This document shows positions 8,487-44,845 of a stretch of 44,926 nt of DNA, one piece after another. The notes under the pieces are model-generated. The model was not told where the DNA came from and ran no database searches. It saw only the letters and a list, made by a program, of their open reading frames with translations. A program made the translations under genes and the position numbers. The stretch spans positions 1 to 44,926 of the forward strand of contig CAYYFM010000073.1 in the NCBI GenBank assembly GCA_964471375.1, written 5' to 3'. Position 1 is the first letter of the stretch. Every line of letters starts with the position of its first letter. The DNA comes from an uncultured Gammaproteobacteria bacterium. GTDB lineage: Bacteria > Patescibacteriota > Patescibacteriia > UBA9934 > GWF2-40-263.

Positions 8487-8552
8487 AGGACTTGACGCCA
8501 CTAAAGTGGCTTTGAATAAATAGCTAAATTCCTAGCGATTTTAATCGCGTCC
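8487..8552. repeat. two half-elements of the palindromic family (GCCACTAAAGTGGC and variant GCGATTTTAATCGC)
   Basis: aggacttGACGCCACTAAAGTGGCtttgaat abuts the grx start. TTCCTAGCGATTTTAATCGCGTCC (8529-8552) contains the stop codon (8541-8543) of the ferredoxin gene. Confidence 0.85.
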
Positions 8553-8825: not shown

Positions 8826-8867
8826 AAAATTGAAGAAATCTAAACGCTAAACGCTACACACTACTCC

Positions 8868-10364
8868 CTACAGGGACCTCAAGTACTCAATCAACGTCCT
8901 GACCCCGTGACCCGTGCCTCCTTTTGGCGTGTATGCGTTGATTTGTTTTTCTGCAAAAGCAGGACCAGCGATGTCGAGATGGACCCAAGGAATTCCGGCG
9001 ACGAATTCTTGAAGGAGTAGTCCAGCGGTAAGCGAACCGCCCCATCGTGGAGCATCATTTTTGTAATCTGCAATGTCGGTTTTGATCAGTTCTTTATACT
9101 GCTCTGGCAATGGAAGCTCCCACATGTTCTCGCCCGCTTCGGCAGCAGCGGCGAGAACTTTTCTTCCGAGAGCGGGATTGTTTGTCATGAGTCCTGTGAA
9201 CTCTTCACCAAGAGCGATAACACACGCTCCTGTCAGCGTGGCGAGATCAATAATCACATCTGGTTTTTGTTTTGTTGCGTACGTGAGTGTATCTGCAAGT
9301 GTCACACGACCTTCGGCATCGGTGTTTTTAATTTCAATTGTTTTGCCATTCATGATCGTAACAACATCTCCTGGACGAATTGCCTTGCCTGAAGGCATGT
9401 TTTCCACGGCGCCGAAAATTCCGTGAACTTCGGCGTCTGGTGCTAGTTTATCGATCACAGAAAAAACCCCAAGCACAGCCGCCGCCCCAGCCATATCACA
9501 TTTCATCGTTTCCATTGAGTTTGCTGGTTTGAGTGAAAGTCCACCAGAATCAAACGTCACGGCCTTTCCAACAAGCGCGATCCGCCTTATGCCTTTCCCT
9601 CCGACCCTCCGAACCTCAGGACCTTTCGTTCCCTTTGGTCTATAAACCATGTGCACCAAAAACGGCTCGTGCTCTGACCCTTGTGCAATTCCTAGCAAAC
9701 CACCACAACCCATCTTTGCAAGCTGATCACGACCAAAAACTTTGAGCTTGATCGAACCTTTCCCTTTCGCGATCGTTCGTGCAGATTCAACCAAATCCTC
9801 CGGTCGCATGTGCGCGGCAGGAGTATTGACAAGATCTCGTGCAAGAATCGTGCCATCCGCCTCCAGATTCGCGCGAACCAATTGCTCCCCCGCTATCCGA
9901 GCAAGGCGTGCATCGTCGGTAACCAGTTCGAACATCTTCGGTGATGAATTATCTTCATCCTTTTTATATCTTCCAAAAGAGTAATCCGCCAATCGAATCC
10001 CTTCAATGATTGCATGCGCAGATCCAAACAAATCACACACCACAGATTTTACTTTGACAGATTTTACCGCCTTCAAGGCACTTGCTCCTGCCTCCCGCGC
10101 TTTTTCATCAGTAAATTTTTTCTTTTCTCCGAGCCCAAGGAGAACCACACGCTTTGCGTTCAATAAACCGCTCGTTCGAATCATCAAAACAGACCCAAGT
10201 TTTGGCTTGAATCCTTCCTCCTTACAAATCGTTTCGATGAGACCGTCCAACGCTTTATTCACCATCGCCGATGTTCCGCTCAACTTTGTGTCAAGAAACT
10301 GACTGACAATGAGAACGTCTGATTTTTCCTCTAAAATGTTTGCTTTGCGAGTCGTAATATTCAT
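8868..10364 (-). CDS. pepA: leucyl aminopeptidase (M17)
   Basis: VGKAVTFDSGGLSLKP, MKCDMAGAAAV and NTDAEGRVTLAD motifs. Confidence 0.9.
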   Translation of the reverse strand: MNITTRKANILEEKSDVLIVSQFLDTKLSGTSAMVNKALDGLIETICKEEGFKPKLGSVLMIRTSGLLNAKRVVLLGLGEKKKFTDEKAREAGASALKAVKSVKVKSVVCDLFGSAHAIIEGIRLADYSFGRYKKDEDNSSPKMFELVTDDARLARIAGEQLVRANLEADGTILARDLVNTPAAHMRPEDLVESARTIAKGKGSIKLKVFGRDQLAKMGCGGLLGIAQGSEHEPFLVHMVYRPKGTKGPEVRRVGGKGIRRIALVGKAVTFDSGGLSLKPANSMETMKCDMAGAAAVLGVFSVIDKLAPDAEVHGIFGAVENMPSGKAIRPGDVVTIMNGKTIEIKNTDAEGRVTLADTLTYATKQKPDVIIDLATLTGACVIALGEEFTGLMTNNPALGRKVLAAAAEAGENMWELPLPEQYKELIKTDIADYKNDAPRWGGSLTAGLLLQEFVAGIPWVHLDIAGPAFAEKQINAYTPKGGTGHGVRTLIEYLRSL

Positions 10365-11164: not shown

Positions 11165-11323
11165 ATGGGAATGAGAAAAAAAATTCGATTAATGTGGAAG
11201 AAGGACCGACAGGTCAATCTTGCTGATCAACGCAAAGCAAAAGCAATTCGTCTCACGAAAGCAGGATCCACCGCAACAAAAGTTGGATCAAAGGCGAGTG
11301 CCGCTAAGACCCAAAGTCACTAA
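11165..11323 (+). CDS. possible small basic protein (52 aa)
   Basis: Hand-translated as MGMRKKIRLMWKKDRQVNLADQRKAKAIRLTKAGSTATKVGSKASAAKTQSH. It is below the track's size cutoff, no family is recognised, and there is no clear SD. Confidence 0.25.
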   Translation: MGMRKKIRLMWKKDRQVNLADQRKAKAIRLTKAGSTATKVGSKASAAKTQSH

Positions 11324-11355
11324 GAGCCGGTCACTTTCGACCGACTCTTAGTGAC
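11316..11355. repeat. 17-bp-stem hairpin sharing the CTAAGAGCCGG core of the REP family
   Basis: GTCACTAAGAGCCGGTC-actttc-GACCGACTCTTAGTGAC (one mismatch). It overlaps the small-ORF stop and the GTG listed as the rlmN start. Confidence 0.8.
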
Positions 11356-11365
11356 CACCTCGCGT

Positions 11366-12463
11366 ATGCGCAAGGAGCAGTTCAGCCAATTATTTCCCGA
11401 CACGCCTGCTTACCGCTGGAAACAGATTGAGCAGGCGTTTTTCGTTCCGACCATTGTGTCTTGGGATGGCATCACTTCGCTTTCAAAAAAAATGCGAGCG
11501 GGCCTTGTGGACATTCCGTTTATGTCGGTGAAGGCAACACAAATCATGGTCAGTGCAAAAAAAGATACACACAAAGCATTACTTGAGTTATCTGATGGTC
11601 AAATCGTCGAATCTGTTCTCATGGAGAACGCACGCGGCGATTGGACGATTTGCGTTTCCTCACAGGTCGGTTGCGCCATGCGCTGTGGGTTTTGTGCCAC
11701 AGGAAAAATGGGCCTGAAGCGATCGCTCACGACCGATGAGATTGTGGATCAGTACCGATTCTGGAACTACTTCCTAGCCACTTTTTTACCCACCAAAGCT
11801 TTAGCGTCGGTGGGAGTCCAGTCCGAGACGGACGGGACTAAAGTCCCTAGGAACATGAAACGGATCAGCAACATCGTTTTCATGGGCATGGGTGAACCAC
11901 TTGCGAATTACGAAAATGTCAAAGCAACGCTCAACACATGGCTTGCCAATACCGACATTGGAAAAACACGCATCACGGTTTCAACGGTCGGAGTGCTTCC
12001 CCGTCTCGAACAAATCCTGACCGACAAAGACTGGCCACACGTTCGCCTCGCTGTCTCGCTTCACTCTGCAATTGCCGAAACGCGCAAACAGATCGTGCCA
12101 ACATCGTACGATGATTTTCTTCCAAAACTGCAAGACTGGGCGCGACGTTACTTGAGCATCCTTGGAAACCGTCGTCATCATCTGACGTTTGAGTACGTGA
12201 TGCTGAAAAACATCAACGACACCGACGAACACGCGCATGCACTCGCCGCATTCGTTCACTCGATTGGAAACGTCCGATGTAATCTCATTCCATACAACTT
12301 GACCGATTGTGAATTTTCGCGAAGCGAAGACAATCAGATTGCAAAATTTATTTCCATTTTAGAAAAAGCAGACGTCACCGCGACACGTCGAAAAACCATG
12401 GGAGATGATATCGCTGCTGCTTGTGGACAGTTGATTGTGCTATCAAAAAAAGCCAAAGGTTAA
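11366..12463 (+). CDS. rlmN: 23S rRNA/tRNA (adenine-C2)-methyltransferase, radical SAM
   Basis: AYRWKQIEQAFF, QVGCAMRCGFCATG (CxxxCxxC), MGMGEPLANY and GDDIAAACGQL motifs. Start set at ATG 11366, outside the hairpin. An 83-bp repeat is read through in frame. Confidence 0.9.
   Translation: MRKEQFSQLFPDTPAYRWKQIEQAFFVPTIVSWDGITSLSKKMRAGLVDIPFMSVKATQIMVSAKKDTHKALLELSDGQIVESVLMENARGDWTICVSSQVGCAMRCGFCATGKMGLKRSLTTDEIVDQYRFWNYFLATFLPTKALASVGVQSETDGTKVPRNMKRISNIVFMGMGEPLANYENVKATLNTWLANTDIGKTRITVSTVGVLPRLEQILTDKDWPHVRLAVSLHSAIAETRKQIVPTSYDDFLPKLQDWARRYLSILGNRRHHLTFEYVMLKNINDTDEHAHALAAFVHSIGNVRCNLIPYNLTDCEFSRSEDNQIAKFISILEKADVTATRRKTMGDDIAAACGQLIVLSKKAKG
11771..11853. repeat. composite palindromic element (83 bp) inside rlmN
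   Basis: TTCCTAGCCACTtttttaCCCACCaaagctttagcgtcGGTGGGagtccagtccgagacgGACGGGACTAAAGTCCCTAGGAA. Translated as FLATFLPTKALASVGVQSETDGTKVPRN. Confidence 0.9.
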
Positions 12464-13304: not shown

Positions 13305-13448
13305 ATGAATGACAATCTACTCGTAACCGTAGAGCAACTTTCAGCGTTTGTGTCCGCATCCCGCGACATGAACTTTGTTGGAGGAACTCGTCGAGAAAAG
13401 TACACGTGGATTGAGCGCCCGGCTCTAAGAGCCGGGCGACCACTGTAA
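13305..13448 (+). pseudogene. probable 5' remnant of a transposase/integrase gene, truncated by a REP hairpin
   Basis: MNDNLLVTVEQLSAFVSASRDMNFVGGTRREKYTWIER resembles N-termini I recall from rve-type integrase/transposase genes (unverified). The frame then runs into REP-encoded PALRAGRPL and stops. Confidence 0.3.
13416..13438. repeat. REP hairpin (variant)
   Basis: CGCCCGGCTC-taa-GAGCCGGGCG, a perfect 10-bp stem. Confidence 0.85.
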
Positions 13449-13458
13449 ACATTGGGTC

Positions 13459-13481
13459 ATTCCGGCTCTAAGAGCCGGAAT
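13459..13481. repeat. REP hairpin
   Basis: ATTCCGGCTC-taa-GAGCCGGAAT, identical to the copies flanking the RAYT gene. Confidence 0.9.
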
Positions 13482-13484
13482 TGC

Positions 13485-24200: not shown

Positions 24201-27200
24201 ATCCCACATCAGTTTTGAAGATGACGCTGTATCACAATCTGAAAGTCCGCCACCAGAAAGCCCTTCGCTAGAATCGGACGAAAGAGTGACATGGCCAGCA
24301 AAGGTGATACCACCACCGGAAACGAAGTCGGTTCCGCTGTCACCGATATTTGTGAGGAGATTTGTATTCGCATCGAGGGTTCCTGAAAGGGTGTGGGCAC
24401 CGAGTGTGTCGGTGGAATTGTCGAAGGTGATGCCTCCATTAGCTGCAAGAGCACCGGCGACGGAGGCGGTGGACGAAAGTGTTGTTGCACCTGTGACTCC
24501 CAGCGTAGATCCGGCAGAAACAGCGCCTGACAATGAAGTCGTCGTTGAAACGGTCAGAGCACCTGTCACATCAACTCCAGAATTCGCGTCGACATTTCCA
24601 GCGAATGTAACCTGTCCAGTCGAGGCAAAAGAGAGAGCGCCAGTTCCAGATGTGGACAGAGTTGCGGATCCAAGGACAATCGCGGTTGCGGCGTCGAGAG
24701 TGAGGCTGTCGGCGAGTTCGGTGAAGTCGAGCGCGTCGTCGACTATATCGACAGTCACTGCTGCCGTCTCAGATCCTGAACCAGAAATTGAGATGTCACC
24801 AGATCCTGCGTCGGAAAGCGTTGCGAGATAATTTCCAGTCGTGTCTGTTCCGAGAGCGATTGAGTTTGAGCCAATCGTTGTTGCTCCTGTTGAGGAGATG
24901 GAGATGTCACCAGAGATTGCGACGGGATTATAGTTTGTACCGTCCGCAACAAGGATGAATCCTGAGGTGTTCGTTGCCATGAAAAGGTCGTCACCAGAGA
25001 TCGTGACATCACCGCCGATGGTGGCGTTTCCTGTTGTTGAAAGAGTAGATCCAATACTAACAGCTCCCGTGAGTGTTGAAGTTCCTGCCACTGCCAGCGT
25101 AGACGAGAGAGTTGTTGCGCCTGTCACGCCAAGAGTAGATCCAGCAGTGACTGCACCAGAGAGAGTGGATGTTGTCGAGACAGTGAGTGCTCCCGTCACG
25201 TCGAAACCAGAGTTCGCGTCAACGTTTCCAGCGAACGTTACCTGTCCAGTCGATGCAAAAGAGAGAGCGCCAGTTCCTGACGTTGAAAGAGCGACGGAGC
25301 CTAGAGCGATGTTTGTTGCAGCATCGAGTGTGAGACTGTCGGCGAGTTCTGTGAAGTCGAGCGCGTCGTCGACGATGTCAATCGTGACCGCGGCGGTTTC
25401 GGAGCCAGAACCAGAAATTGAGATGTCCCCAGATCCTGCGTCGGAAAGCGTTGCGAGATAGTTTCCTGTCGTGTCTGTTCCAAGAGCGATTGAGTTTGAG
25501 CCAATGGTCACCGCACCAGTGGAGGAGATCGTCATGTCGCCAGAGATGGCCACTGGGTTATAATTTGTCCCGTCAGCGACGAGGATAAAACCTGACGTGT
25601 TTGTTGCCATGAACAGATCGTCGCCAGAGATCGTGACATCACCGCCGACGGTGGTATTTCCTGTTGTTGAAAGAGTAGATCCAATACTAACGGCTCCTGT
25701 GAGCGTTGATGTTCCCGAAACAGAAATAGACGATAGTGTTCCGACTCCCGTGATCGCCGTCGAGACAGCATCGTTTGTGTCGAGTAGCGCGGCGTCTTTT
25801 CCGTCGAGACGATCGAGTTCGGTTGCAGAGATGGTTGTTGATGTTGTCGTGATGTCATTTGAGCCAATCGCAAGTGCTGTGACGATATCAGAATCGGATG
25901 CATCGATTGCTGTTGTGATGGCTCCAGCCGCGGATGAAATTTCAAGGGCGGTTGTGACAGCTTCGTCGGTGTCTGCGTTATCAAGAACAAGAAGACGTTC
26001 GGTGTTTGTTGAACCAGTGGAGTTGGCATTCTGGAGAACGAAAAGACGTTGGGATGTTGCGTCTGTCGAACCATCGTTTGTGATGGTGTACGTCAAACCA
26101 TCAAATGCTGCTGCAGTTGACGCGGTATTCCAATCGAGGGTCTGGACGGTTTCATTCATCGCGACAGCACCGTTTCCGGATGGATCACCGATCACATCAA
26201 ACGCGGTCGCTGATCCAGAGTTCTGGTCCGATCCACAGGAAAATTTATTCGTCGTCGCGTCCCACATGAGTTTGGATGTCGAAGCGGTGTCACAGTCAGA
26301 AAGTCCGCCACCAGATAATCCCTCAGATGAATCTGACGAGAGTGTGACATGTCCAGCAAACGTAATTCCACCACCAGAAACGAAGTCAGTTCCGCTGTCA
26401 CCGATGTTCGTGAGGAGGTTTGTATTTGCATCGAGGGTTCCAGCAAGTGTGTGTGCTCCGAGCGTGTCAGTAGAGTTGTCGAAGGTGATGCCACCGTTTG
26501 CGGCGAGAGCGCCAGCGACGGATGCTGTGGAGGAGAGAGTTGTTGCACCGGTTACACCAAGAGTCGAACCAACGGAGACAGCTCCAGACAGTGTTGAAGT
26601 CGTAGAAACAGTGAGTGCTCCTGTCACGTCGAGACCGGAGTTCGCGTCAACATTTCCAGCGAACGTTACCTGTCCAGTCGAAGCAAAAGAGAGAGCGCCA
26701 GTTCCAGACGTTGAAAGAGCGACAGAACCAAGAGCGATGTTTGTAGCAGCATCGAGCGTGAGGCTGTCCGCGAGTTCGGTGAAGTCAAGCGCGTCGTCTA
26801 CTATATCGACAGTCACTGCTGCCGTCTCAGACCCTGAACCAGAAATAGAAATGTCACCAGATCCTGCGTCGGAAAGCGTTGCGAGATAATTTCCTGTTGA
26901 ATCTGTTCCAAGAGCGACTGAGTTTGCGTCAATCGTTGTTGCTCCTGTTGAGGAGAAGGAGATGTCACCAGAGATTGCGACGGGATTATAGTTTGTACCG
27001 TCCGCAACAAGGATGAATCCTGAGGTGTTCGTTGCCATGAATAGATCGTCTCCAGTAACAGTGAGATCACCACCAACTGTGGTGTTTCCTGTCGTGCTTA
27101 GTGTCGAGCCTGTACTGACAGCTCCTGTGAGTGTTGATTCTCCAGAAACGGACACGGAAGAGAGTGTTGATGCTCCACTTACAGAAAGTGTGGAACCAGC

Positions 27201-29033
27201 AGAAACAGCACCGGACAATGTGGATGCGCCTGAGACAGTGAGAGCACCAGTCACGTCTGCGCCAGCGTTTGCATCGACATTTCCAGCAAATGTGACCTGT
27301 CCGGTCGAGACGAATGAAAGTGCGCCTGTTCCAGATGTAGACAGTACAGATGATCCGATGGCAATGTCTGTTGCGGCGTCAAGCGTGAGACTGTCTGCAA
27401 ATTCAGTGAAATCAAGCGCGTCGTCGGTGATGTCGATTGTTACTGACGCGGATTCAGAGCCGGATCCAGTAACCGTCAGATCTCCAGCTCCTGCATCGGC
27501 AAATACGGCGAGATAGTTTCCCGTCGTGTCCGCTCCGAGCTCAGCCGCATTTGGTGTAAGAGTGGTTGTTCCATTTGATGCGAGGATGACATCCCCCGAG
27601 ACAGCGACGGGATTATAGTTGATGCCGTCGGCAACCAGGATAAATCCGTCTGTGTTTGTTGTGAGGAATAGATCGTCACCCGTTATTATGAGATCGCCGC
27701 CAACCGTTGTATTTCCTGCTGTTGAAAATGTAGAACCAGCTGCAACAGCGCCTGCCAACGTCGTCACGCCCGAGACGGTGAATGCGCCTGTAACATCTGC
27801 ACCATTTGTCGCATCCACATTCCCCGCAAAGGTAACCTGTCCAGTCGAAGCAAATGAAAGAGCACCTGTTCCAGAAGTAGAAAGAGTTGAGGAACCAAGA
27901 GCGACATCTGTTGAACTGTCGAGGGTCAATGCATCAGCGAGCTCAGTGAAGTCTAGCGCGTCATCAACGATATCGATAGTCACAGCCGCGTTTTCTGATC
28001 CAGATCCAGTGATAGACAAATCCCCTGCTCCTGCATCTGAAAGTGTGGCGAGATAATTTCCTGAAGTGTCACTCGCGAGGTCAACGGCATTTGATTGAAT
28101 CGTTAACACGCCCAAATCGGACAGACTTGCATCTCCTGAAACTCCGATCGGTGTGAAATCTGTTCCGTTTGCAATGAGCAGAAAGCCTGATGTGTTTATT
28201 CCCATGGAGAGATTGTTTCCACTGATAGTGATGTCACCTGTTACGGTGAGATCAGAACCTGTTGTGACGACACCCGACAATGTTGATGATCCAGAAACAG
28301 AAAGGGATGCAAAGCTCGCGAGATCTGAAACAAAATCTCCGGCGATTGTAAGATCACCCGTTGATGTGAGTGAGTTCGTTGCATTGAAAAAATTGATTGA
28401 TCCAGTAACGCTCGATCCTTGCAATGTGAGAGAGTTGCTTCCTGTTGCGGTCACAGACGGATTCGTATCTCCAAGAACAAGTGAGCCGTCTGTAAGAACG
28501 GGAATCTGTTCGTCGACCGCCGACTGTGATGGAGTGTATCCACCAACGGAGTTGCTATTAATCGCATACCCAGAAGCACCGATACGCAATCGTGGTGAGA
28601 GTGTTTCAAATGTCACTCCTGTGCATGAACTACTAATTTGTTCAGCGACTTCGATGTTGAGATACGCTTCGTCCGTATCAAAAAAATCGAAATCGAGTGC
28701 GTCACCATCTGCAGACGTATCACCGATGCCTACTGAGTACACACCATCAACAACTTCGACGGTCATGGTGGACGGAGCACTCGATGGCCATAACGCTGTA
28801 TCAGGTGCTCCTACGACAGAGTCGCTATACATCGAAAAGCGAAAACAAAAATCTGTCCCATCACCCCCAAGTAAATTTCCTTCTCCATCAAGCAGTCTTC
28901 CTTGATGGTTTAAGATTTCGGGAACACCTGTTGCAGCAAGCAAAACAGCGGGATACCGAAGTATTCCCGTCAACACTAATATTAGACACACGAGACTTGT
29001 GATTATTCGTCTCATAGTTCGTTCGCTGACCAT
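21255..29033 (-). CDS. giant repetitive secreted fibre/adhesin-like protein (2592 aa)
   Basis: Uninterrupted 7.8-kb ORF with:
- a signal peptide
- six ~200-aa A modules (..GDDLFMATNTSGFILVADGTNYNPVAISGD..TGNYLATLSDAGSGD..DDALDFTELADSLTLD..)
- two full and one divergent ~270-aa B modules
- a Cys-containing distal domain
- a phage-tailspike-chaperone-like segment
- an acidic tail
An alternative start is ATG 29015 (MRRIITS). Confidence 0.85.
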   Translation of the reverse strand: MVSERTMRRIITSLVCLILVLTGILRYPAVLLAATGVPEILNHQGRLLDGEGNLLGGDGTDFCFRFSMYSDSVVGAPDTALWPSSAPSTMTVEVVDGVYSVGIGDTSADGDALDFDFFDTDEAYLNIEVAEQISSSCTGVTFETLSPRLRIGASGYAINSNSVGGYTPSQSAVDEQIPVLTDGSLVLGDTNPSVTATGSNSLTLQGSSVTGSINFFNATNSLTSTGDLTIAGDFVSDLASFASLSVSGSSTLSGVVTTGSDLTVTGDITISGNNLSMGINTSGFLLIANGTDFTPIGVSGDASLSDLGVLTIQSNAVDLASDTSGNYLATLSDAGAGDLSITGSGSENAAVTIDIVDDALDFTELADALTLDSSTDVALGSSTLSTSGTGALSFASTGQVTFAGNVDATNGADVTGAFTVSGVTTLAGAVAAGSTFSTAGNTTVGGDLIITGDDLFLTTNTDGFILVADGINYNPVAVSGDVILASNGTTTLTPNAAELGADTTGNYLAVFADAGAGDLTVTGSGSESASVTIDITDDALDFTEFADSLTLDAATDIAIGSSVLSTSGTGALSFVSTGQVTFAGNVDANAGADVTGALTVSGASTLSGAVSAGSTLSVSGASTLSSVSVSGESTLTGAVSTGSTLSTTGNTTVGGDLTVTGDDLFMATNTSGFILVADGTNYNPVAISGDISFSSTGATTIDANSVALGTDSTGNYLATLSDAGSGDISISGSGSETAAVTVDIVDDALDFTELADSLTLDAATNIALGSVALSTSGTGALSFASTGQVTFAGNVDANSGLDVTGALTVSTTSTLSGAVSVGSTLGVTGATTLSSTASVAGALAANGGITFDNSTDTLGAHTLAGTLDANTNLLTNIGDSGTDFVSGGGITFAGHVTLSSDSSEGLSGGGLSDCDTASTSKLMWDATTNKFSCGSDQNSGSATAFDVIGDPSGNGAVAMNETVQTLDWNTASTAAAFDGLTYTITNDGSTDATSQRLFVLQNANSTGSTNTERLLVLDNADTDEAVTTALEISSAAGAITTAIDASDSDIVTALAIGSNDITTTSTTISATELDRLDGKDAALLDTNDAVSTAITGVGTLSSISVSGTSTLTGAVSIGSTLSTTGNTTVGGDVTISGDDLFMATNTSGFILVADGTNYNPVAISGDMTISSTGAVTIGSNSIALGTDTTGNYLATLSDAGSGDISISGSGSETAAVTIDIVDDALDFTELADSLTLDAATNIALGSVALSTSGTGALSFASTGQVTFAGNVDANSGFDVTGALTVSTTSTLSGAVTAGSTLGVTGATTLSSTLAVAGTSTLTGAVSIGSTLSTTGNATIGGDVTISGDDLFMATNTSGFILVADGTNYNPVAISGDISISSTGATTIGSNSIALGTDTTGNYLATLSDAGSGDISISGSGSETAAVTVDIVDDALDFTELADSLTLDAATAIVLGSATLSTSGTGALSFASTGQVTFAGNVDANSGVDVTGALTVSTTTSLSGAVSAGSTLGVTGATTLSSTASVAGALAANGGITFDNSTDTLGAHTLSGTLDANTNLLTNIGDSGTDFVSGGGITFAGHVTLSSDSSEGLSGGGLSDCDTASSSKLMWDASTNKFSCGSDQTSSTATTFDAIGDPSGNGAVAMAETVQTLDWNTASTAAVFDGMTYTITNDSSTDSTSQRLFILQNANTTGSSATERLFVLDNADTNEAVTTALEISSAAGAITTAIDATDSDIVTALAIGSNDITTTSTTISATELDRLDGKDATLLDTNDAVSTAITGLGTLSTLTTSGNATIGGDVTISGDDLFMATNTSGFILVADGTNYNPVAISGDMTISSAGAVTIGSNSIALGTDTTGNYLATLSDAGSGDISISGSGSETAAVTVDIVDDALDFTELGDTLTLDAALSISGSASRTIDWSRTLTNATAENAMTISTIATDTTSATSSQFGLYVDNVASTEALDASIVLDNSDTDDVVGTAIKIIDAGGGFTSVIDNAGTLISGAELNRLDGKDAALVDQNDLTASDGSGATSSGSGLETGTGGIGLIQGCADGDILTWNDSSAVWQCGPNGAADTATFTDTTTELASFTTAADIWDGTFPNITVNTATATVLIAVNIRGTSDDANDQNPVFTIRRAQNSNPTCSSTQVGGEFVGDFLTANSEDWGASATFVDTGAFSASDNVRYTICTTTTGLDDGNTDEIRVSLVELGADLAENYYTTDDSIGPGDVVELDPSIPAGVKKASSPYNKNVIGVVSTAPGIILDDATGIGYGRAVPVALAGRIPVMVSTENGVVKAGDLLTSSSEPGVAMKATQAGQIIGQAMQDYGYNETQGLISMFIKTDFYNGTSSDQTTLDLTDLALVDGITFQTTGKFLHGILVDSIGSLSDLIAIQNDTIFFGRPYFNADMGGFARVSFGDRMVRVEFEDEYLDQPVVTASLTIESSDGSSVTAQTEQAFFNSGLSFIVTDKNTTGFTILLNRSAPADLLFSWTALAIRDARTEYSESGGHEEIRPSNDLQEIEEIEKIQVVEDIIPVIASETKQSSESEEEMTEEIAAPSARNDTEEEIDTSLSTELVESIEVPYVEIIETEIVE
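21351..21434. repeat. inverted pair of CATTGCGAG..GCAATC hairpin units (third small-repeat family)
   Basis: GTCATTGCGAGccgaaggcgcgGCAATC (21351-21378) and GATTGCttcgtttcaCTCGCAATGAC (21409-21434). Read in frame in the giant gene as VIASETKQSSES..EEIAAPSARNDT. Confidence 0.8.
23300..28300. repeat. high-identity internal tandem repeats of the giant gene
   Basis: The antisense shadow ORFs 23581-24831 and 25597-26889 translate almost identically. Strings such as GATCCTGCGTCGGAAAGCGTTGCGAGATA recur at about 24800, 25430 and 26860. The super-repeat period is about 2.0-2.06 kb and the A-module spacing about 0.6 kb. Confidence 0.9.
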
Positions 29034-30589: not shown

Positions 30590-30646
30590 ACCATCTCCAA
30601 CTAACCATCCGGCACCATCCTGTCCAAAATTAGGCTCCGACTTTAA

Positions 30647-30687
30647 GAAAAGTCTTCAACATATTTTCGATATGTTTCAGACTTTTC
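30647..30687. repeat. 18-bp-stem hairpin between genes
   Basis: GAAAAGTCTTCAACATAT-tttcg-ATATGTTTCAGACTTTTC with two mismatches. Confidence 0.7.
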
Positions 30688-30750
30688 TTTTCGTCTCGCC
30701 ATGATTTTGAACAGGCTATGCCGAAGCGTTAATTGGAGATAGTATCACAC

Positions 30751-35099: not shown

Positions 35100-35196
35100 G
35101 GAGCCACATGGGCCATATGAGCCAGAGGAGCCAGAGAAAAAGGAAATAATTTTCCTTCGCCTTTGGCTCATATGGCTTTTCTGGCTCCTTTGGCTC
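35100..35196. repeat. long word hairpin (GAGCCA / TGGCTC words) between rplJ and rplL
   Basis: ggagccacatgggccatatgagccagaggagccagag - aaaaaggaaataattttccttcg - cctttggctcatatggcttttctggctcctttggctc. Confidence 0.8.
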
Positions 35197-35732: not shown

Positions 35733-35996
35733 AATAGTTGTTATTGACTACGAAAACATACGAAATTACGGAAATACGGAAATAACGAGATAAATTTTTT
35801 CTGTACATTCTGTATTTCCGTAATTCAGTATGTTTTCGTCGTATGTAACGATTTTTCGACCTTTAATAAAAAATTCTGCAACCGAAGCGCAGAATTCGAC
35901 AAAACGCGAGAAAACTCACGCAATACCTCGACAGGACTTATGAAAACTCTTCGATACACTCAGAGTCTCCAACCTGTTTTCTACGGCTTAGATTGT
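35733..35996 (-). promoter_or_regulatory. long 5' leader of rplJ-rplL (possible L10 autoregulatory leader), including a word hairpin at 35749-35843
   Basis: About 260 nt lie between the predicted promoter and the rplJ ATG. It contains the near-perfect inverted repeat TACGAAAACATACGAAATTACGGAAATA / TATTTCCGTAATTCAGTATGTTTTCGT. L10-leader identity is not verified. Confidence 0.3.
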
Positions 35997-36032: not shown

Positions 36033-36049
36033 GAGTTCTAAATATCTCC

Positions 36050-36999
36050 ATTCCGGCTCTTAGAGCCGGAATCAAAACGACAGAATTATACAATCACTTA
36101 ATCCTAAACCCCAGCAAACGGTGCCATTCCGGCTCTAAGAGCCGGAATGGCTTTGACAGAGTAAGATGCCCGAAAGATTAGAACCAGACGAATGATGGTT
36201 CTTCTGCTCCAAAAAAAGTCGGAACTTTCAGATATTGTAGATACGCTTCTTTCGTTGCAAACCACTTTCGCACTATTTCTTCATCAACAACAGGTAACCG
36301 CTGTTTATTTTTCAAATAGACTGGATGACTAGACCAGCGATATTCATTCAGCTTTCTTTCGGCTCCACCATCCCAATTGGTATGACCGCCATCCCGCCAT
36401 TCAAATGGAGACCCATCTAAGGCATTTAAATGAATATAGCGTGGCAACAACTGAAGATGTTCTTCGGAATCGACCGGTTTTGCCTTAAAGGGGCCCTCAC
36501 AAAGCCGACCTTTCCGGTCATATCTGATGTTAAAATAATTGGCGTATCCCATTCCAACACGATGAAGAAATTTCGAAATTCCCTCAGGAACGGTTTGTTT
36601 TAGTAATAGGTGAAAATGAGTAGGTCGTAAACAAAATGAAACAATACTGACGAGTGGTTCTCTTCCGTAGGAATAAACCTCATGACCAGCAAGAAGCGCT
36701 TCTCGTTCTATTTCTGTTCCACCTCTGTGCTTATAATTTAGATCATTAAACAAATACATGGATTCATAAAATCGATGGTAATCATGTTCATCCAGAAAAA
36801 TAACCCGCTTATCTACACCACGGTTATAAACATGATAATAGCTGTTCGAAACAATAGGTTCACGCATAATTTTCGTAGTTAATCTGACCCTAACCGTCAT
36901 TCCGGCTCTAAGAGCCGGAATGAGAATCGGAACACCAGAACGGGTTTTTAAGCAAATTACTAGCAAACGGTGCCATTCCGGCTCTAAGAGCCGGAATGG
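36050..36999 (-). mobile_element. RAYT gene with flanking REP hairpins (REP/RAYT unit)
   Basis: REP hairpins at 36050-36072, 36124-36150, 36898-36922 and 36973-36999 bracket the Y1-transposase-like gene. The 38-nt string AGCAAACGGTGCCATTCCGGCTCTAAGAGCCGGAATGG is repeated in direct orientation on both sides (36113-36150 and 36962-36999). Confidence 0.75.
36178..36867 (-). CDS. REP-associated tyrosine transposase (IS200/IS605 TnpA-like, RAYT)
   Basis: YYHVYNRGVDKRVIF, the HUH motif in PTHFHLLLKQ, and the catalytic-Tyr region LLPRYIHLNAL. Start set at ATG 36865-36867 (MREPIV). The track's upstream 63 codons are REP sequence (..IPALRAG..) and overlap murF. Confidence 0.8.
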   Translation of the reverse strand: MREPIVSNSYYHVYNRGVDKRVIFLDEHDYHRFYESMYLFNDLNYKHRGGTEIEREALLAGHEVYSYGREPLVSIVSFCLRPTHFHLLLKQTVPEGISKFLHRVGMGYANYFNIRYDRKGRLCEGPFKAKPVDSEEHLQLLPRYIHLNALDGSPFEWRDGGHTNWDGGAERKLNEYRWSSHPVYLKNKQRLPVVDEEIVRKWFATKEAYLQYLKVPTFFGAEEPSFVWF

Positions 37000-37040
37000 C
37001 CAGAGTCGGGTTGAACCTGAAGATGCGGAACAGTTGGATA

Positions 37041-38330
37041 TTATGTATCGAGCCACGTACCGTACTGGCGGACAAGGAGTTCTTGGGCGTGGGTGGGTTC
37101 GGCTAGGAGGTCTTTTACGGCTTTTTCCATGCGGGAGGATTGGGAGCCTTTTAGGAGAATTACGTCCCCATGCTTTATGTTGAAATCTAACCAGCGACCC
37201 GCTTCGGTGGATGTGGCGAAAAACTGAATGTGGGACTCATCCATTCCTGCTTCAATGGCACCGCGGCGGATATCGCGAGCTTCTTCGTTGACGCAGATAA
37301 GAAGATCAGCAACTTCTGCGGCGCGTAGGCCGAGCAGACGATGTTCCGGAACGCTATACTGACCGAGTTCGGCCATTTTGCCGAGAACGGCAATACGACG
37401 GGCGGAACCTACGGGACTAAAGTCCCTAAGAACTTCCAAGGCTGAACTCATGGATGCTGGTGCCGCATTATATGAGTCGTCGAGCAGAAGCGTTCCTTTG
37501 ATTCCAGCGAGTGGACGCATTCGTCCTGCGTGTGGCTCAAGCGTTGCAAGAGCTGTCACGATCTCATCGATTGTCATGCCAAGCTGTTTGCCAACCGCGG
37601 CAGCGGCAAGAGCGGCATAGACCTGACCACGCCCAAGCAGATTTGGAAGAACAACGGGGGCACGCTCCCGATCGAGACAGAGATCAAAATGAATCGCGCA
37701 CTTATCCATGCTTGTATCTGTCTGATAATTTTCTGCACGGACATCTGAAACGGCGCTGAATCCATACGTCACCGTTCTGCAATCTATTCGCTGTTCGATC
37801 ACAAGCGGATCATCCGCATTCAAAAATGCGACCCCGCCAGATTTCATCTTACGAACGATCTGACCTTTTTCTTTTGCGAGATCTTCCACAGACGCAAAAA
37901 ACTCTGCATGCACGGGAGTGACCGCGGTTAAAACCGAAATATCCGGAGGTGCCATCTGGCAAAGACGTGAAATATCACCAGGATGATCAAGACCAAATTC
38001 GAGGACGAAGTGGGTGGGTAGCGTGTAACGTTTAGCGTTTAGAACTGAAATAGGATACATCAAGCTAAAAGCATTCCAGAAAACTTTAATCCATCCAAAA
38101 AGAGATTTCCCTGGACTCTTCTCTCCGATAATTGTGAGTGGGACACCAAACTCATTATTATAATTTTCTGTAGGTGATCGAACGGAAAATTTTGTGCTCA
38201 AAACCGTCGCGATCGCATTACGCGTCGATGTCTTTCCTACCGACCCTGTAACAGCAATAACGGTTGGATGGTGTTTGTGAAGAATTTGTCTCGCAAAATA
38301 GGCGAGGAGAAATTGGATGAGTTTTTTCAT
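37041..38330 (-). CDS. murF: UDP-N-acetylmuramoyl-tripeptide--D-alanyl-D-alanine ligase
   Basis: Mur ligase P-loop VIAVTGSVGKTSTRNAI and LLLDDSYNAAPASM (MurF DDSYNANP-like). ATGA overlap with the ftsI stop. Contains two small in-frame repeat fragments. Confidence 0.85.
   Translation of the reverse strand: MKKLIQFLLAYFARQILHKHHPTVIAVTGSVGKTSTRNAIATVLSTKFSVRSPTENYNNEFGVPLTIIGEKSPGKSLFGWIKVFWNAFSLMYPISVLNAKRYTLPTHFVLEFGLDHPGDISRLCQMAPPDISVLTAVTPVHAEFFASVEDLAKEKGQIVRKMKSGGVAFLNADDPLVIEQRIDCRTVTYGFSAVSDVRAENYQTDTSMDKCAIHFDLCLDRERAPVVLPNLLGRGQVYAALAAAAVGKQLGMTIDEIVTALATLEPHAGRMRPLAGIKGTLLLDDSYNAAPASMSSALEVLRDFSPVGSARRIAVLGKMAELGQYSVPEHRLLGLRAAEVADLLICVNEEARDIRRGAIEAGMDESHIQFFATSTEAGRWLDFNIKHGDVILLKGSQSSRMEKAVKDLLAEPTHAQELLVRQYGTWLDT
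37411..37433. repeat. single-arm palindromic element inside murF
   Basis: ACGGGACTAAAGTCCCTAAGAAC, read as VLRDFSPV, a different element frame from the full-length copies. Confidence 0.85.
38018..38042. repeat. TAGCGT-word fragment inside murF
   Basis: GTAGCGTGTAACGTTTAGCGTTTAG uses the same words as the hairpin at 7288-7387 and the stretch at 8843-8866. Read in frame as LNAKRYTLP. Confidence 0.7.
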
Positions 38331-42804: not shown

Positions 42805-42840
42805 CGGTCCGACGTACGTCGAACCTCTTCTGCGAATAAC

Positions 42841-42958
42841 AATGAGCTGCGAATAACAAATCGATACAAATTCTACAAATGCAACAAATGGCAACGAATA
42901 TATGTAGCAATTCGTAGTATTTGTTGAATTTGTAGCGATTTGTTATTCGCAGCTCATT
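42841..42958. repeat. 118-bp element with ~40-bp near-perfect terminal inverted repeats (CGAATAACAAATCG words)
   Basis: The left arm is aatgagctgcgaataacaaatcgatacaaattctacaaat (42841-42880). The right arm (42919-42958) is its reverse complement with 2 mismatches. Partial copies of CGAATAACAAATCG lie at 41874-41887 and about 42832. Confidence 0.8.
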
Positions 42959-43022
42959 GACTCCGACTGATTTTCTTGCTACACTGATCGGTCGTTTCTT
43001 TTTCACGACAACAGGAGAAAGC

Positions 43023-44030: not shown

Positions 44031-44047
44031 TCTGAGTGGTATTTTTT
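44019..44047 (+). terminator. rho-independent terminator (stop codon in the loop)
   Basis: ACCACTCAG-tagt-CTGAGTGGT followed by a T6 run. Confidence 0.7.
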
Positions 44048-44585
44048 ATCTCCTATACAAAAACAACTTCGACTTCCCTTCCACTTCATCCACCACCGAT
44101 GGCTCCCAGCCTTCGATGGGCCAGACATACGTGACAACGCGGGTGCCAGGACGGAGTTCTGCTTCGAGTTTTGGTCGGATTTTTTCGTACGTTTCTGGCA
44201 TGAGAAACATGTACACTGCGTCTGCGTCGCGTAAGTTGTATTGAAAGGCGTTTGCGAGGACGAATCGGACGTTCCATGTTCGCAGCATAACACGACGGAT
44301 ATTTGCGATGAGATATTGCAAAAGAGAAAGCTCGACTCCTACCAGATTGCAATTCCTAGGGACTTTAGTCCCATCAGATCCGGACGCCACTAAAGTGGCT
44401 AGGAACATGGAAACTCTTCCATCCCCACATCCAAGCTCCACAAATTTTTCTCCATCCTGAAGCGCAAGCAATTTCTTCAAACGATCAATATCCCCCCGAA
44501 ATGTCGGCACCCAAGGCGCCCCTGATGCCGAGGCGTAGGCAAGGGAAAAAAGTAGAATAAAAAAAATGATCCAAACGAATGTCAT
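44046..44585 (-). CDS. class I SAM-dependent methyltransferase with an N-terminal TM/signal segment
   Basis: SAM motif I VELGCGDGRV. A 53-bp palindromic element is read in frame as FLATLVASGSDGTKVPRN directly after motif I. Confidence 0.75.
   Translation of the reverse strand: MTFVWIIFFILLFSLAYASASGAPWVPTFRGDIDRLKKLLALQDGEKFVELGCGDGRVSMFLATLVASGSDGTKVPRNCNLVGVELSLLQYLIANIRRVMLRTWNVRFVLANAFQYNLRDADAVYMFLMPETYEKIRPKLEAELRPGTRVVTYVWPIEGWEPSVVDEVEGKSKLFLYRR
44353..44405. repeat. double-hairpin palindromic element, 53 bp (type copy), inside the methyltransferase gene
   Basis: TTCCTAG-GGACTTTAGTCC-catcagatccggacg-CCACTAAAGTGG-CTAGGAA. Confidence 0.9.
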
Positions 44586-44706: not shown

Positions 44707-44845
44707 GACGCCACTATATTCTGAACGCCACTAAAGTGGCTAGGAAATGTTCCTAGGGACTTTAGTCCCGTCTGGTTCTGAACGCCACTCCCACCGACGC
44801 TAAAGCTTTGGTGGGTAAAAAAGTGGCTAGGAAATGTTCTTTGGG
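44707..44845. repeat. cluster of palindromic elements next to tRNA-Pro, including a nested CCCACC..GGTGGG insertion
   Basis: GACGCCACT.., GAACGCCACTAAAGTGGCTAGGAA-atg-TTCCTAGGGACTTTAGTCCCGTC, and GAACGCCACT[CCCACCgacgctaaagctttGGTGGGtaaaaa]AGTGGCTAGGAA. Confidence 0.9.

Follow-up and report, generated by a model that had tools for sequence, protein, structure and literature searches.

A probable REP doublet with a nested hairpin, in frame in rlmN of a Patescibacteria contig, and signs of a length filter on intragenic copies of its family

In a 44,926-nucleotide stretch of DNA (contig CAYYFM010000073.1 of assembly GCA_964471375.1, placed by GTDB in Patescibacteriota; the whole stretch is called the window below) an 83-bp palindromic element, TTCCTAGCCACTTTTTTACCCACCAAAGCTTTAGCGTCGGTGGGAGTCCAGTCCGAGACGGACGGGACTAAAGTCCCTAGGAA, occupies positions 11771-11853. 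It lies in frame within an intact rlmN gene and has the sequence that the initial annotation had described. We consider it probable that this insert is a doublet of REP (repetitive extragenic palindromic) sequences, comparable to REP doublets forming hairpins (REPINs) or to bacterial interspersed mosaic elements (BIMEs), with a second hairpin nested within it, and that it comes from a family associated with REP-associated tyrosine transposases (RAYTs) whose copies were filtered by selection. The assignment to the REP/REPIN type, which the initial annotation had not made, is based on the presence of the same REP beside Y1 transposase genes in three genomes and on the lack of target-site duplications.

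The basic unit of the family is a doublet of 53 bp, in which two REP hairpins of 23 nt each stand inverted to one another with a spacer of about 7 nt. The consensus of the left half is TTCNNAG-SSACTTTAGTSS-CGTC and that of the right half GACG-SSACTAAAGTSS-CTNNGAA. The 6-bp stem, GGGACT/AGTCCC, starts with a G-C pair and encloses a loop of TT or AA. Each hairpin has a CGTC/GACG tag at its inner foot and an xTAG tag at its outer foot (CTAG or ATAG, with GTAG in Chloroflexota), and an A/T bias was seen two bases outside the element. The window contains 18 REP halves, and GGGACTAAAGTCCC with at most three mismatches matched it 21 times as compared to 2.1 matches expected from shuffled sequences. 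The window and 190 further loci, from several genomes, gave 54 non-redundant doublets of 47-109 bp, and 338 unique halves were collected across the loci. The two variable stem positions pair with each other in 299 of these 338 non-redundant halves, against 110 expected under independence, which indicates that local hairpins are what is conserved. In most doublets a GG-stem REP is joined to a CC-stem one (42 heterodimers versus 4 homodimers, p=5e-9), and as single-stranded DNA the copies fold better than shuffled sequences, with z scores from -2.4 to -6.0.

Based on alignment to the simple 53-bp units, the rlmN copy has exactly 30 additional columns, so that its 83 bp consist of the doublet and a 30-bp hairpin module nested within the loop of the left (first) REP. 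The same module was found twice more in the window, at 4922-4975 and 44787-44833. Outside the window CCCACC-N10-18-GGTGGG gave a single match, in an unrelated Sulfurovum contig (L061). The rlmN composite is predicted to fold as single-stranded DNA with -21.2 kcal/mol (z=-5.25). In the frame of rlmN the element reads FLATFLPTKALASVGVQSETDGTKVPRN and is flanked by CAMRCGFCATG and GMGEPL.

The identity of the host gene was supported by a Pfam Radical_SAM match and by the presence of CxxxCxxC, GMGEPL and the conserved C-terminal cysteine. Its product matched solved RlmN structures with E=7.5e-47 (6fz6) and E=1.8e-45 (3rf9); homologues number in the thousands, the nearest being from Candidatus Uhrbacteria and other Patescibacteria. 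The alignment with solved RlmN splits exactly around the insert, which forms the gap between two aligned blocks. In an AlphaFold model of the protein (mean predicted local distance difference test score, pLDDT, 81; predicted TM-score, pTM, 0.83) residues 144-162, within the insert, had a pLDDT below 50. The loop between RFW and RISNIV ranged from 7 to 50 aa in 95 RlmN homologues, with a mode of 12. From the variable loop length, the low pLDDT of the insert and the split alignment, the insertion site between the radical-SAM cluster and GMGEPL is, on the predicted model, a permissive surface loop.

The closest RlmN orthologue (P0002, contig L102; 90% identical in the alignment) has no insert at this site. 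In the RlmN of the sister contig L099 (P0003) an unrelated loop of 15 aa stands where the window has the REP insert. A simple 53-bp doublet was found at the same codon, after W-N-Y, in an RlmN only 67% identical (P0015; L192, 1044-1096), and its stems match the REP variants of that contig's own genome. Either doublets inserted at this codon more than once, or an old insertion was homogenised with local REPs.

The other copies in the window were also found to be insertions, as had been anticipated. The sister, a syntenic contig of a close relative (L099 and L185) with approximately 80-90% nucleotide identity, aligns along the window and the alignment breaks at the element sites. It has a single REP half, in murF, and lacks REPs at the tatD, rsmI-end and grx-end sites. 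At the rlmN loop and at the methyltransferase site it carries different inserts. The latter site (window 44353-44405) holds another GC-rich palindrome in the sister, CTCCCTCCTG...GGGGGAGCTAGGAGGGGG (L185, 1880-1960), indicating that one permissive loop has been used by unrelated hairpin elements in two close relatives. This palindrome, together with the doublet at the same rlmN codon in L192, points to permissive sites being few, as judged from the sequences. Empty-site orthologues had been proposed as a means to define the inserted length. Two informative empty sites were present in the fetched loci, one in tatD (against L099) and one intergenic (L140 against L165). The 59-bp unit in tatD corresponds to a 60-nt gap in L099.

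A target-site duplication, for which the initial annotation had left room, was absent: none of the 54 doublets had abutting direct repeats of 3 nt or longer. This bears on whether the copies might be conventional MITEs (miniature transposable elements with inverted repeats), deletion derivatives of a DDE insertion sequence with the 7-bp terminal inverted repeats TTCCTAG/CTAGGAA. Such an origin would account for the short terminal inverted repeats, the small size and the high copy number, but we regard it as very improbable, since besides the missing duplications no parent insertion sequence was seen in 1.4 Mb of loci, the conserved parts are two internal hairpins with covarying stems, and the same halves flank Y1 transposase genes.

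These transposase genes are IS200-like (Pfam PF01797, Y1_Tnp) and are flanked by the 23-nt REP of the window type in three genomes from two phyla. In one Patescibacteria locus (L017) TTCATAGCCACTTTAGTGGCGTC is found on both sides of a gene for a 179-aa transposase that scored 27.9 bits, above the cutoff. In a second one (L190, SCSL01000027) the transposase P0269 is flanked by GACGGGACTAAAGTCCCTAAGAA and TTCAAAGCCACTTTAGTGGCGTC. The third locus is from Sulfurovum (L070), where GGAGCAGGGACTTTAGTCCC...GGGACTGAAGTCCCTGCTCC doublets accompany a Y1 transposase of 44.6 bits. One member of the transposase clade is named REP element-mobilizing transposase RayT by one database source, and the REPs beside other members share this architecture but have other stems. 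The window itself also encodes a RAYT-like Y1 transposase, with the HUH motif THFHLLL and the tyrosine motif RYIHLNA, which has more than 1,300 homologues, most of them with a precomputed PF01797 match. It was rejected as the enzyme mobilising the rlmN-type REP, because the doublets that flank it are made of a different palindrome, CATTCCGGCTCTTAGAGCCGGAATG, and it therefore belongs to a second REP system. A further copy of the CATTCCGGCTCTTAGAGCCGGAATG palindrome was found at 13446-13484, with a related palindrome at 11318-11358, and on three other Patescibacteria contigs a lineage-specific palindrome, different in each case, flanks the orthologue of this transposase.

We also considered whether the hairpins are structures selected by the host and kept in place, either as RNA stability or termination signals or as sites for a regulator of the DosR/NarL type. 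The covarying stems are compatible with this, and the murF half-site is conserved in three genomes (window 37410-37432; L185, 9387; L055, 1060). In addition, REPs near gene ends provide stop and start codons. The 14-nt core of the hairpin, GGGACTWWAGTCCC (for example at 11834-11847), matches that of the DosR box of Mycobacterium (TTSGGGACTWWAGTCCCSAA) exactly; this was the sole biological match of the hairpin sequence in a literature search and was judged to be probably coincidental. However, copies occur in both orientations, in unrelated open reading frames (ORFs) and between genes, and those in tatD and at the rsmI and grx ends are absent from the orthologous sister sites. Rfam at gathering thresholds matched only a tRNA in the window and gave no family for the element. 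Stem bases are free to vary if they remain paired, which speaks for a single strand that folds and against base-specific recognition of duplex DNA. A host function of this kind is thus highly unlikely to explain the family.

The murF half is located a few hundred bases from a RAYT gene in both the window and L185, and in L055 a RAYT fragment lies approximately 600 bp away.

The initial annotation had given the full intragenic copies of the window as 53, 53, 59 and 83 bp, all 2 mod 3. These lengths were reproduced: the two doublets in tatD have 59 and 53 bp, the one in the methyltransferase gene (44046-44585) has 53 bp and that in rlmN 83 bp. Because the measured length is 2 mod 3, a frame-preserving insert consists of the unit and one further base. 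The shared reading frame also held: with TTC as one codon the peptide is F-x-A/G-T-L-V...D-A/G-T-K-V-x-x-N, whichever strand carries the gene. In units of length 3n+2 the TTC register alone is free of stops; each strand is open in exactly one frame in 18 of the 23 units of this class. Where only one register is open, a common frame is a necessity.

Extended to the 54 doublets, the pattern changed. A doublet was classed as intragenic when a stop-free register continued for at least 40 codons on both sides, after which the host ORF was checked. Verified hosts included, in other genomes, UvrA, a class-I tRNA synthetase, DNA polymerase III subunits, RecJ, TruB and YchF, and further a Wzy_C protein and an amidohydrolase. 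Doublets of length 3n+2 were intragenic in 10 cases and elsewhere in 13, and those of length 3n+1 in 6 and 12 cases, respectively; hence the single length class and single frame of the window copies are not general. The 3n+2 doublets read F-x-G/A-T-L-V-P/A-S ... D-G/A-T-K-V-x-x-N, and the 3n+1 doublets use another register of the first arm, x-x-S-H-F-S-G-V ... D-G-T-K-V-P-x-N. Doublets of length 3n accounted for none of the 16 verified intragenic copies and for 13 of the 38 elsewhere (Fisher p=0.0057), in a small multi-genome sample that was classed after the fact and partly curated by eye. Weighting by open frames predicts 4.3 intragenic 3n doublets, with a probability of 0.007 for finding none, so stop codons do not explain their absence. 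The composites fit this pattern, as the rlmN copy has 83 bp and the one extragenic composite of the window 84 bp.

Three apparent intragenic doublets were set aside. In L071 the ORF merely shadows an ECF sigma factor gene encoded opposite to it; in L167 it is a 118-codon ORF without a domain; and in L176 it has no domain and an arginine-rich composition. When all three doubtful ORFs are counted, the depletion of 3n doublets falls to 2/19 versus 11/35, with p of about 0.1 by hand estimate. A frame census of solo halves was dropped, since many matches of the genome scan were chance coding of D-G-T-K-V, a register whose antisense is open as well. These counts indicate a length bias between genic and other doublets and partly support a filter on survival. 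The earlier suggestion that only frame-preserving insertions survive agrees with the absence of intragenic 3n doublets and of broken genes; however, 3n+1 doublets, read in a second register, are also intragenic.

The initial annotation had also raised the possibility that the element evolved to be translatable. In this explanation selection would have tuned its sequence and length so that insertions, read in a preferred register, add a hydrophilic loop peptide that is tolerated. Consistent with it, the second arm is read as D-G/A-T-K-V-P/A-x-N/K in 16 of 16 intragenic doublets, and the other register (T-G-L-K-S-L-G), open in approximately 72% of halves, is never used. The 3n doublets are missing from genes despite having as many open frames, and a doublet occupies the same rlmN site in the lineage of L192. 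However, of random palindromic 53-mers 81-90% are open in at least one frame, and one open frame out of three is what random palindromes give; an open frame is thus no sign of evolved translatability. Within the window alone there is no contrast in length, because the non-internal doublets at 4869 (3' end of the rsmI-like gene) and 5648 (its start) also have 53 bp. The sample is limited as described above, and random insertion followed by filtering at the level of the peptide would give the same pattern with no adaptation of the element. We consider this form of coding competence unlikely. A broader version is also doubtful, in which RAYT-linked CGTC REP doublets of Patescibacteria are under selection for one coding register and act as a mobile loop-peptide module that repeatedly settles at the same permissive positions in housekeeping enzymes, as in the rlmN of two distant lineages; the family would at the same time supply the transposase reported missing for REPs of the CGTC type.

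In our preferred explanation, the filtered REP doublet, a RAYT encoded elsewhere in the genome would have mobilised doublets in trans as single-stranded DNA, leaving no target duplication. Copies may have landed in coding and non-coding DNA alike. Purifying selection would then have eliminated frame-shifting copies, copies whose reading ran into the TAG or TAA in a hairpin loop and copies in structurally intolerant sites. The genic copies left would be in frame and placed in surface loops that tolerate them, the variable RlmN loop among these; there they are presumably translated as 18-28 extra residues.

Several points weigh against this explanation. The sole RAYT of the window is flanked by a different REP, and no cognate enzyme is present within those 45 kb. 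Mobilisation of the rlmN-type family by a RAYT is an inference, as are translation of the insert and retained activity of RlmN. Both 3n+1 and 3n+2 doublets are found in genes, and a single fixed element boundary does not predict two classes. The extra base beyond the measured unit is unexplained. Finally, the second arm always uses the same one of its two stop-free registers, which would not follow from a pure stop-and-frame filter.

The REP copies of the window and the genes discussed above are listed in Table 1. The ORFs of the window contain four doublets and two solo halves internally. No copy interrupts a gene; the host ORFs are all intact and the copies are in frame. The rsmI-like gene takes its stop codon and its final 24 residues from the cluster at the metG/rsmI junction.

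Table 1. Positions of REP copies and associated genes in the window.
Feature	Position	Strand	Remarks
Host gene rlmN	11366-12463	+	365 aa, intact; CxxxCxxC, GMGEPL and C-terminal CGQL present
Composite REP doublet in rlmN	11771-11853	+	28 codons counting the next base
Nested hairpin module, 30 bp, TTTACCCACC-N14-GGTGGG (CCCACC-N14-GGTGGG)	11785-11814	+	Within left REP loop; boundary uncertain by about 3 nt because of a T run
Right REP half GACGGGACTAAAGTCCCTAGGAA	11831-11853	+	Perfect consensus
59-bp REP doublet in frame in tatD (FPGTLVPSEADTDATKVAGN)	1979-2037	-	60-nt gap versus L099
53-bp REP doublet in frame in tatD (FTATLVASDPDATKVAVN)	2432-2484	-	
REP cluster at metG/rsmI junction	4846-4975		Solo half 4846-4868, doublet 4869-4921, left REP and nested module 4922-4975
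53-bp REP doublet at 5' end of rsmI-like gene	5648-5700		Likely ATG 5650-5652 (minus strand) within its TTCATAG end
Two solo REP halves	8494-8551		8494-8516 and degenerate 8529-8551; between glutaredoxin and Suc_Fer-like genes
Solo REP half in 5' part (near N-terminus) of cohesin-like ORF	18863-18885	+	Followed by a 15-bp tandem array
RAYT-like Y1 transposase	36178-36867	-	Flanked by CATTCCGGCTCTTAGAGCCGGAATG doublets, 36037-36151 and 36886-37000
Solo REP half within murF	37410-37432	+	Other register (VLRDFSPV); conserved in two other genomes
53-bp REP doublet in frame in SAM-methyltransferase-like gene (FLATLVASGSDGTKVPRN)	44353-44405	-	Gene at 44046-44585
Extragenic solo half and 84-bp composite doublet	44724-44833		Solo half 44724-44746, composite 44750-44833; adjoins tRNA gene

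Other repeats were observed near these copies and elsewhere in the window. Tandem arrays begin at REP ends, as with (TAGGAA)n at 5695-5755 beside the doublet 5648-5700. A 15-bp repeat at 18879-18935, beside the solo half of the cohesin-like ORF, is translated as (RFLAT)n in a long ORF. In tatD a low-complexity insert at 2485-2540 (EPQEPKEPEGPK) is not present in the sister genome and has an 80% inverted match to 35101-35144, between the L7/L12 and L10 genes. Tandem repeats of 14 bp (CTACACGCTACTCA) occur at two intergenic sites, 7289-7388 and 8833-8879, in mutually inverted orientation. Long imperfect palindromes with arms of 46-56 nt were found between genes at 42840-42959, 35733-35856 and 30619-30715, one of them between divergent ORFs. 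A block of approximately 10.7 kb (18201-28924) is absent from the sister contig; it has dockerin- and cohesin-like ORFs and includes a 2592-aa protein (21255-29033, minus strand) built of internal repeats of at least 300 nt.

Beyond Patescibacteria, the GACG-tagged hairpin was also found in doublets of Chloroflexota, Armatimonadota, Cyanobacteria and others, with the canonical GTAG as the outer tag in Chloroflexota. The Chloroflexota loci (L001, L003, L005, L006, L009 and others) have many copies of GTTCGTAGTAGGCGATTTATCGCC-N-GACGGCACTAAAGTGCCTACTACGAAC, with the same doublet architecture, the same second hairpin and the canonical GTAG tag. Doublets nearly identical to those of the window, for example TTCATAGCCACTTTAGTGGCGTC...GACGGGACTAAAGTCCCTTTGAA, were present in four CAYRYG01 contigs labelled Gammaproteobacteria (L045, L059, L069 and L071), which suggests mis-binning or horizontal spread.

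These results place selfish DNA of the REP/REPIN type, usually described as extragenic, in frame in housekeeping genes of a small Patescibacteria genome. The affected genes are rlmN, tatD, murF and a methyltransferase gene here, and uvrA, truB, ychF and tRNA synthetase genes in relatives. The census gives a first quantitative sign of a filter that decides which copies survive. Such inserts inflate and confuse protein alignments and domain calls in metagenome-assembled genomes.

The family resembles REPs and REPINs (Nunvar 2010; Bertels and Rainey 2011, PMC3116915) in its short palindromes with a conserved unpaired tag, in the inverted doublets, whose halves are set apart by a short spacer and which can form a single hairpin, in the absence of target duplication and in the same repeats flanking a single Y1/HUH transposase gene (L017, L190 and L070). 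REPINs are, according to Bertels and Rainey, extragenic doublets (PMC3116915), whereas roughly half of the copies here are within protein-coding genes, so that the family departs from the extragenic definition. It further differs in its hosts, Patescibacteria rather than Gammaproteobacteria, in its very short doublets of 47-63 bp and in that the window has no RAYT flanked by the rlmN-type REP.

The BIMEs of E. coli consist of pairs of Y and Z REPs, are extragenic and bind IHF or gyrase. The present doublets similarly combine two kinds of REP with different stems (GG and CC), but many copies are intragenic. For Rickettsia palindromic elements (RPEs; Ogata et al. 2000) it has reportedly been proposed that selection shaped them to be coding-competent. 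RPE-1 is 100-150 bp long, and we know of no transposase for RPEs. As with RPEs, palindromic selfish DNA has entered conserved genes here without loss of frame, in a reduced genome, and seems to be tolerated in surface loops; unlike RPE-1, the elements have 53-83 bp and the host is from another phylum, and the likeness drawn here is one of description. Palindromic amphipathic repeat coding elements (PARCELs, PMC2996958) are also palindromic repeats that give a similar peptide in either orientation, but they are tandem intragenic coding repeats in surface proteins, whereas the present elements are dispersed hairpin doublets linked to a transposase.

A precedent is the survey of Di Nocera et al. 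2013 (PMC3733652), which describes GTAG- and CGTC-tagged REP superfamilies with head-to-head dimers, heterodimers and REP ends that give TAG stops. It lists intragenic dimers that encode 20-30 aa in uvrA and truB and in genes for tRNA synthetases and polymerases, classes Rickettsia RPE-4 and RPE-6 as CGTC REPs, and argues that inactivating insertions were purged and that survivors are in loops (PMC3733652). The survey found no transposase tied to CGTC repeats (PMC3733652), whereas the CGTC-tagged REPs studied here flank RAYT genes in three genomes of two phyla. The present family shares with those REPs the CGTC tag at the inner hairpin end, head-to-head dimers, heterodimers, TAG stops from REP ends and intragenic dimers of about 20 aa, often in DNA-repair and RNA-modification genes. 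It differs from CGTC families 1-4 as given there (8-9 bp stem starting with A-T, 4-5-nt loop, 3-nt tail) in its 6-bp stem and 2-nt loop, and from CGTC families in having an xTAG tag also at the outer end (GTAG in Chloroflexota). The Patescibacteria host and the nested composite also set it apart from the cases described in the survey. The rlmN case is the same phenomenon as the published intragenic REPs (PMC3733652): the in-frame intragenic REP is a known type of event, and what is new is the host and the repeat family.

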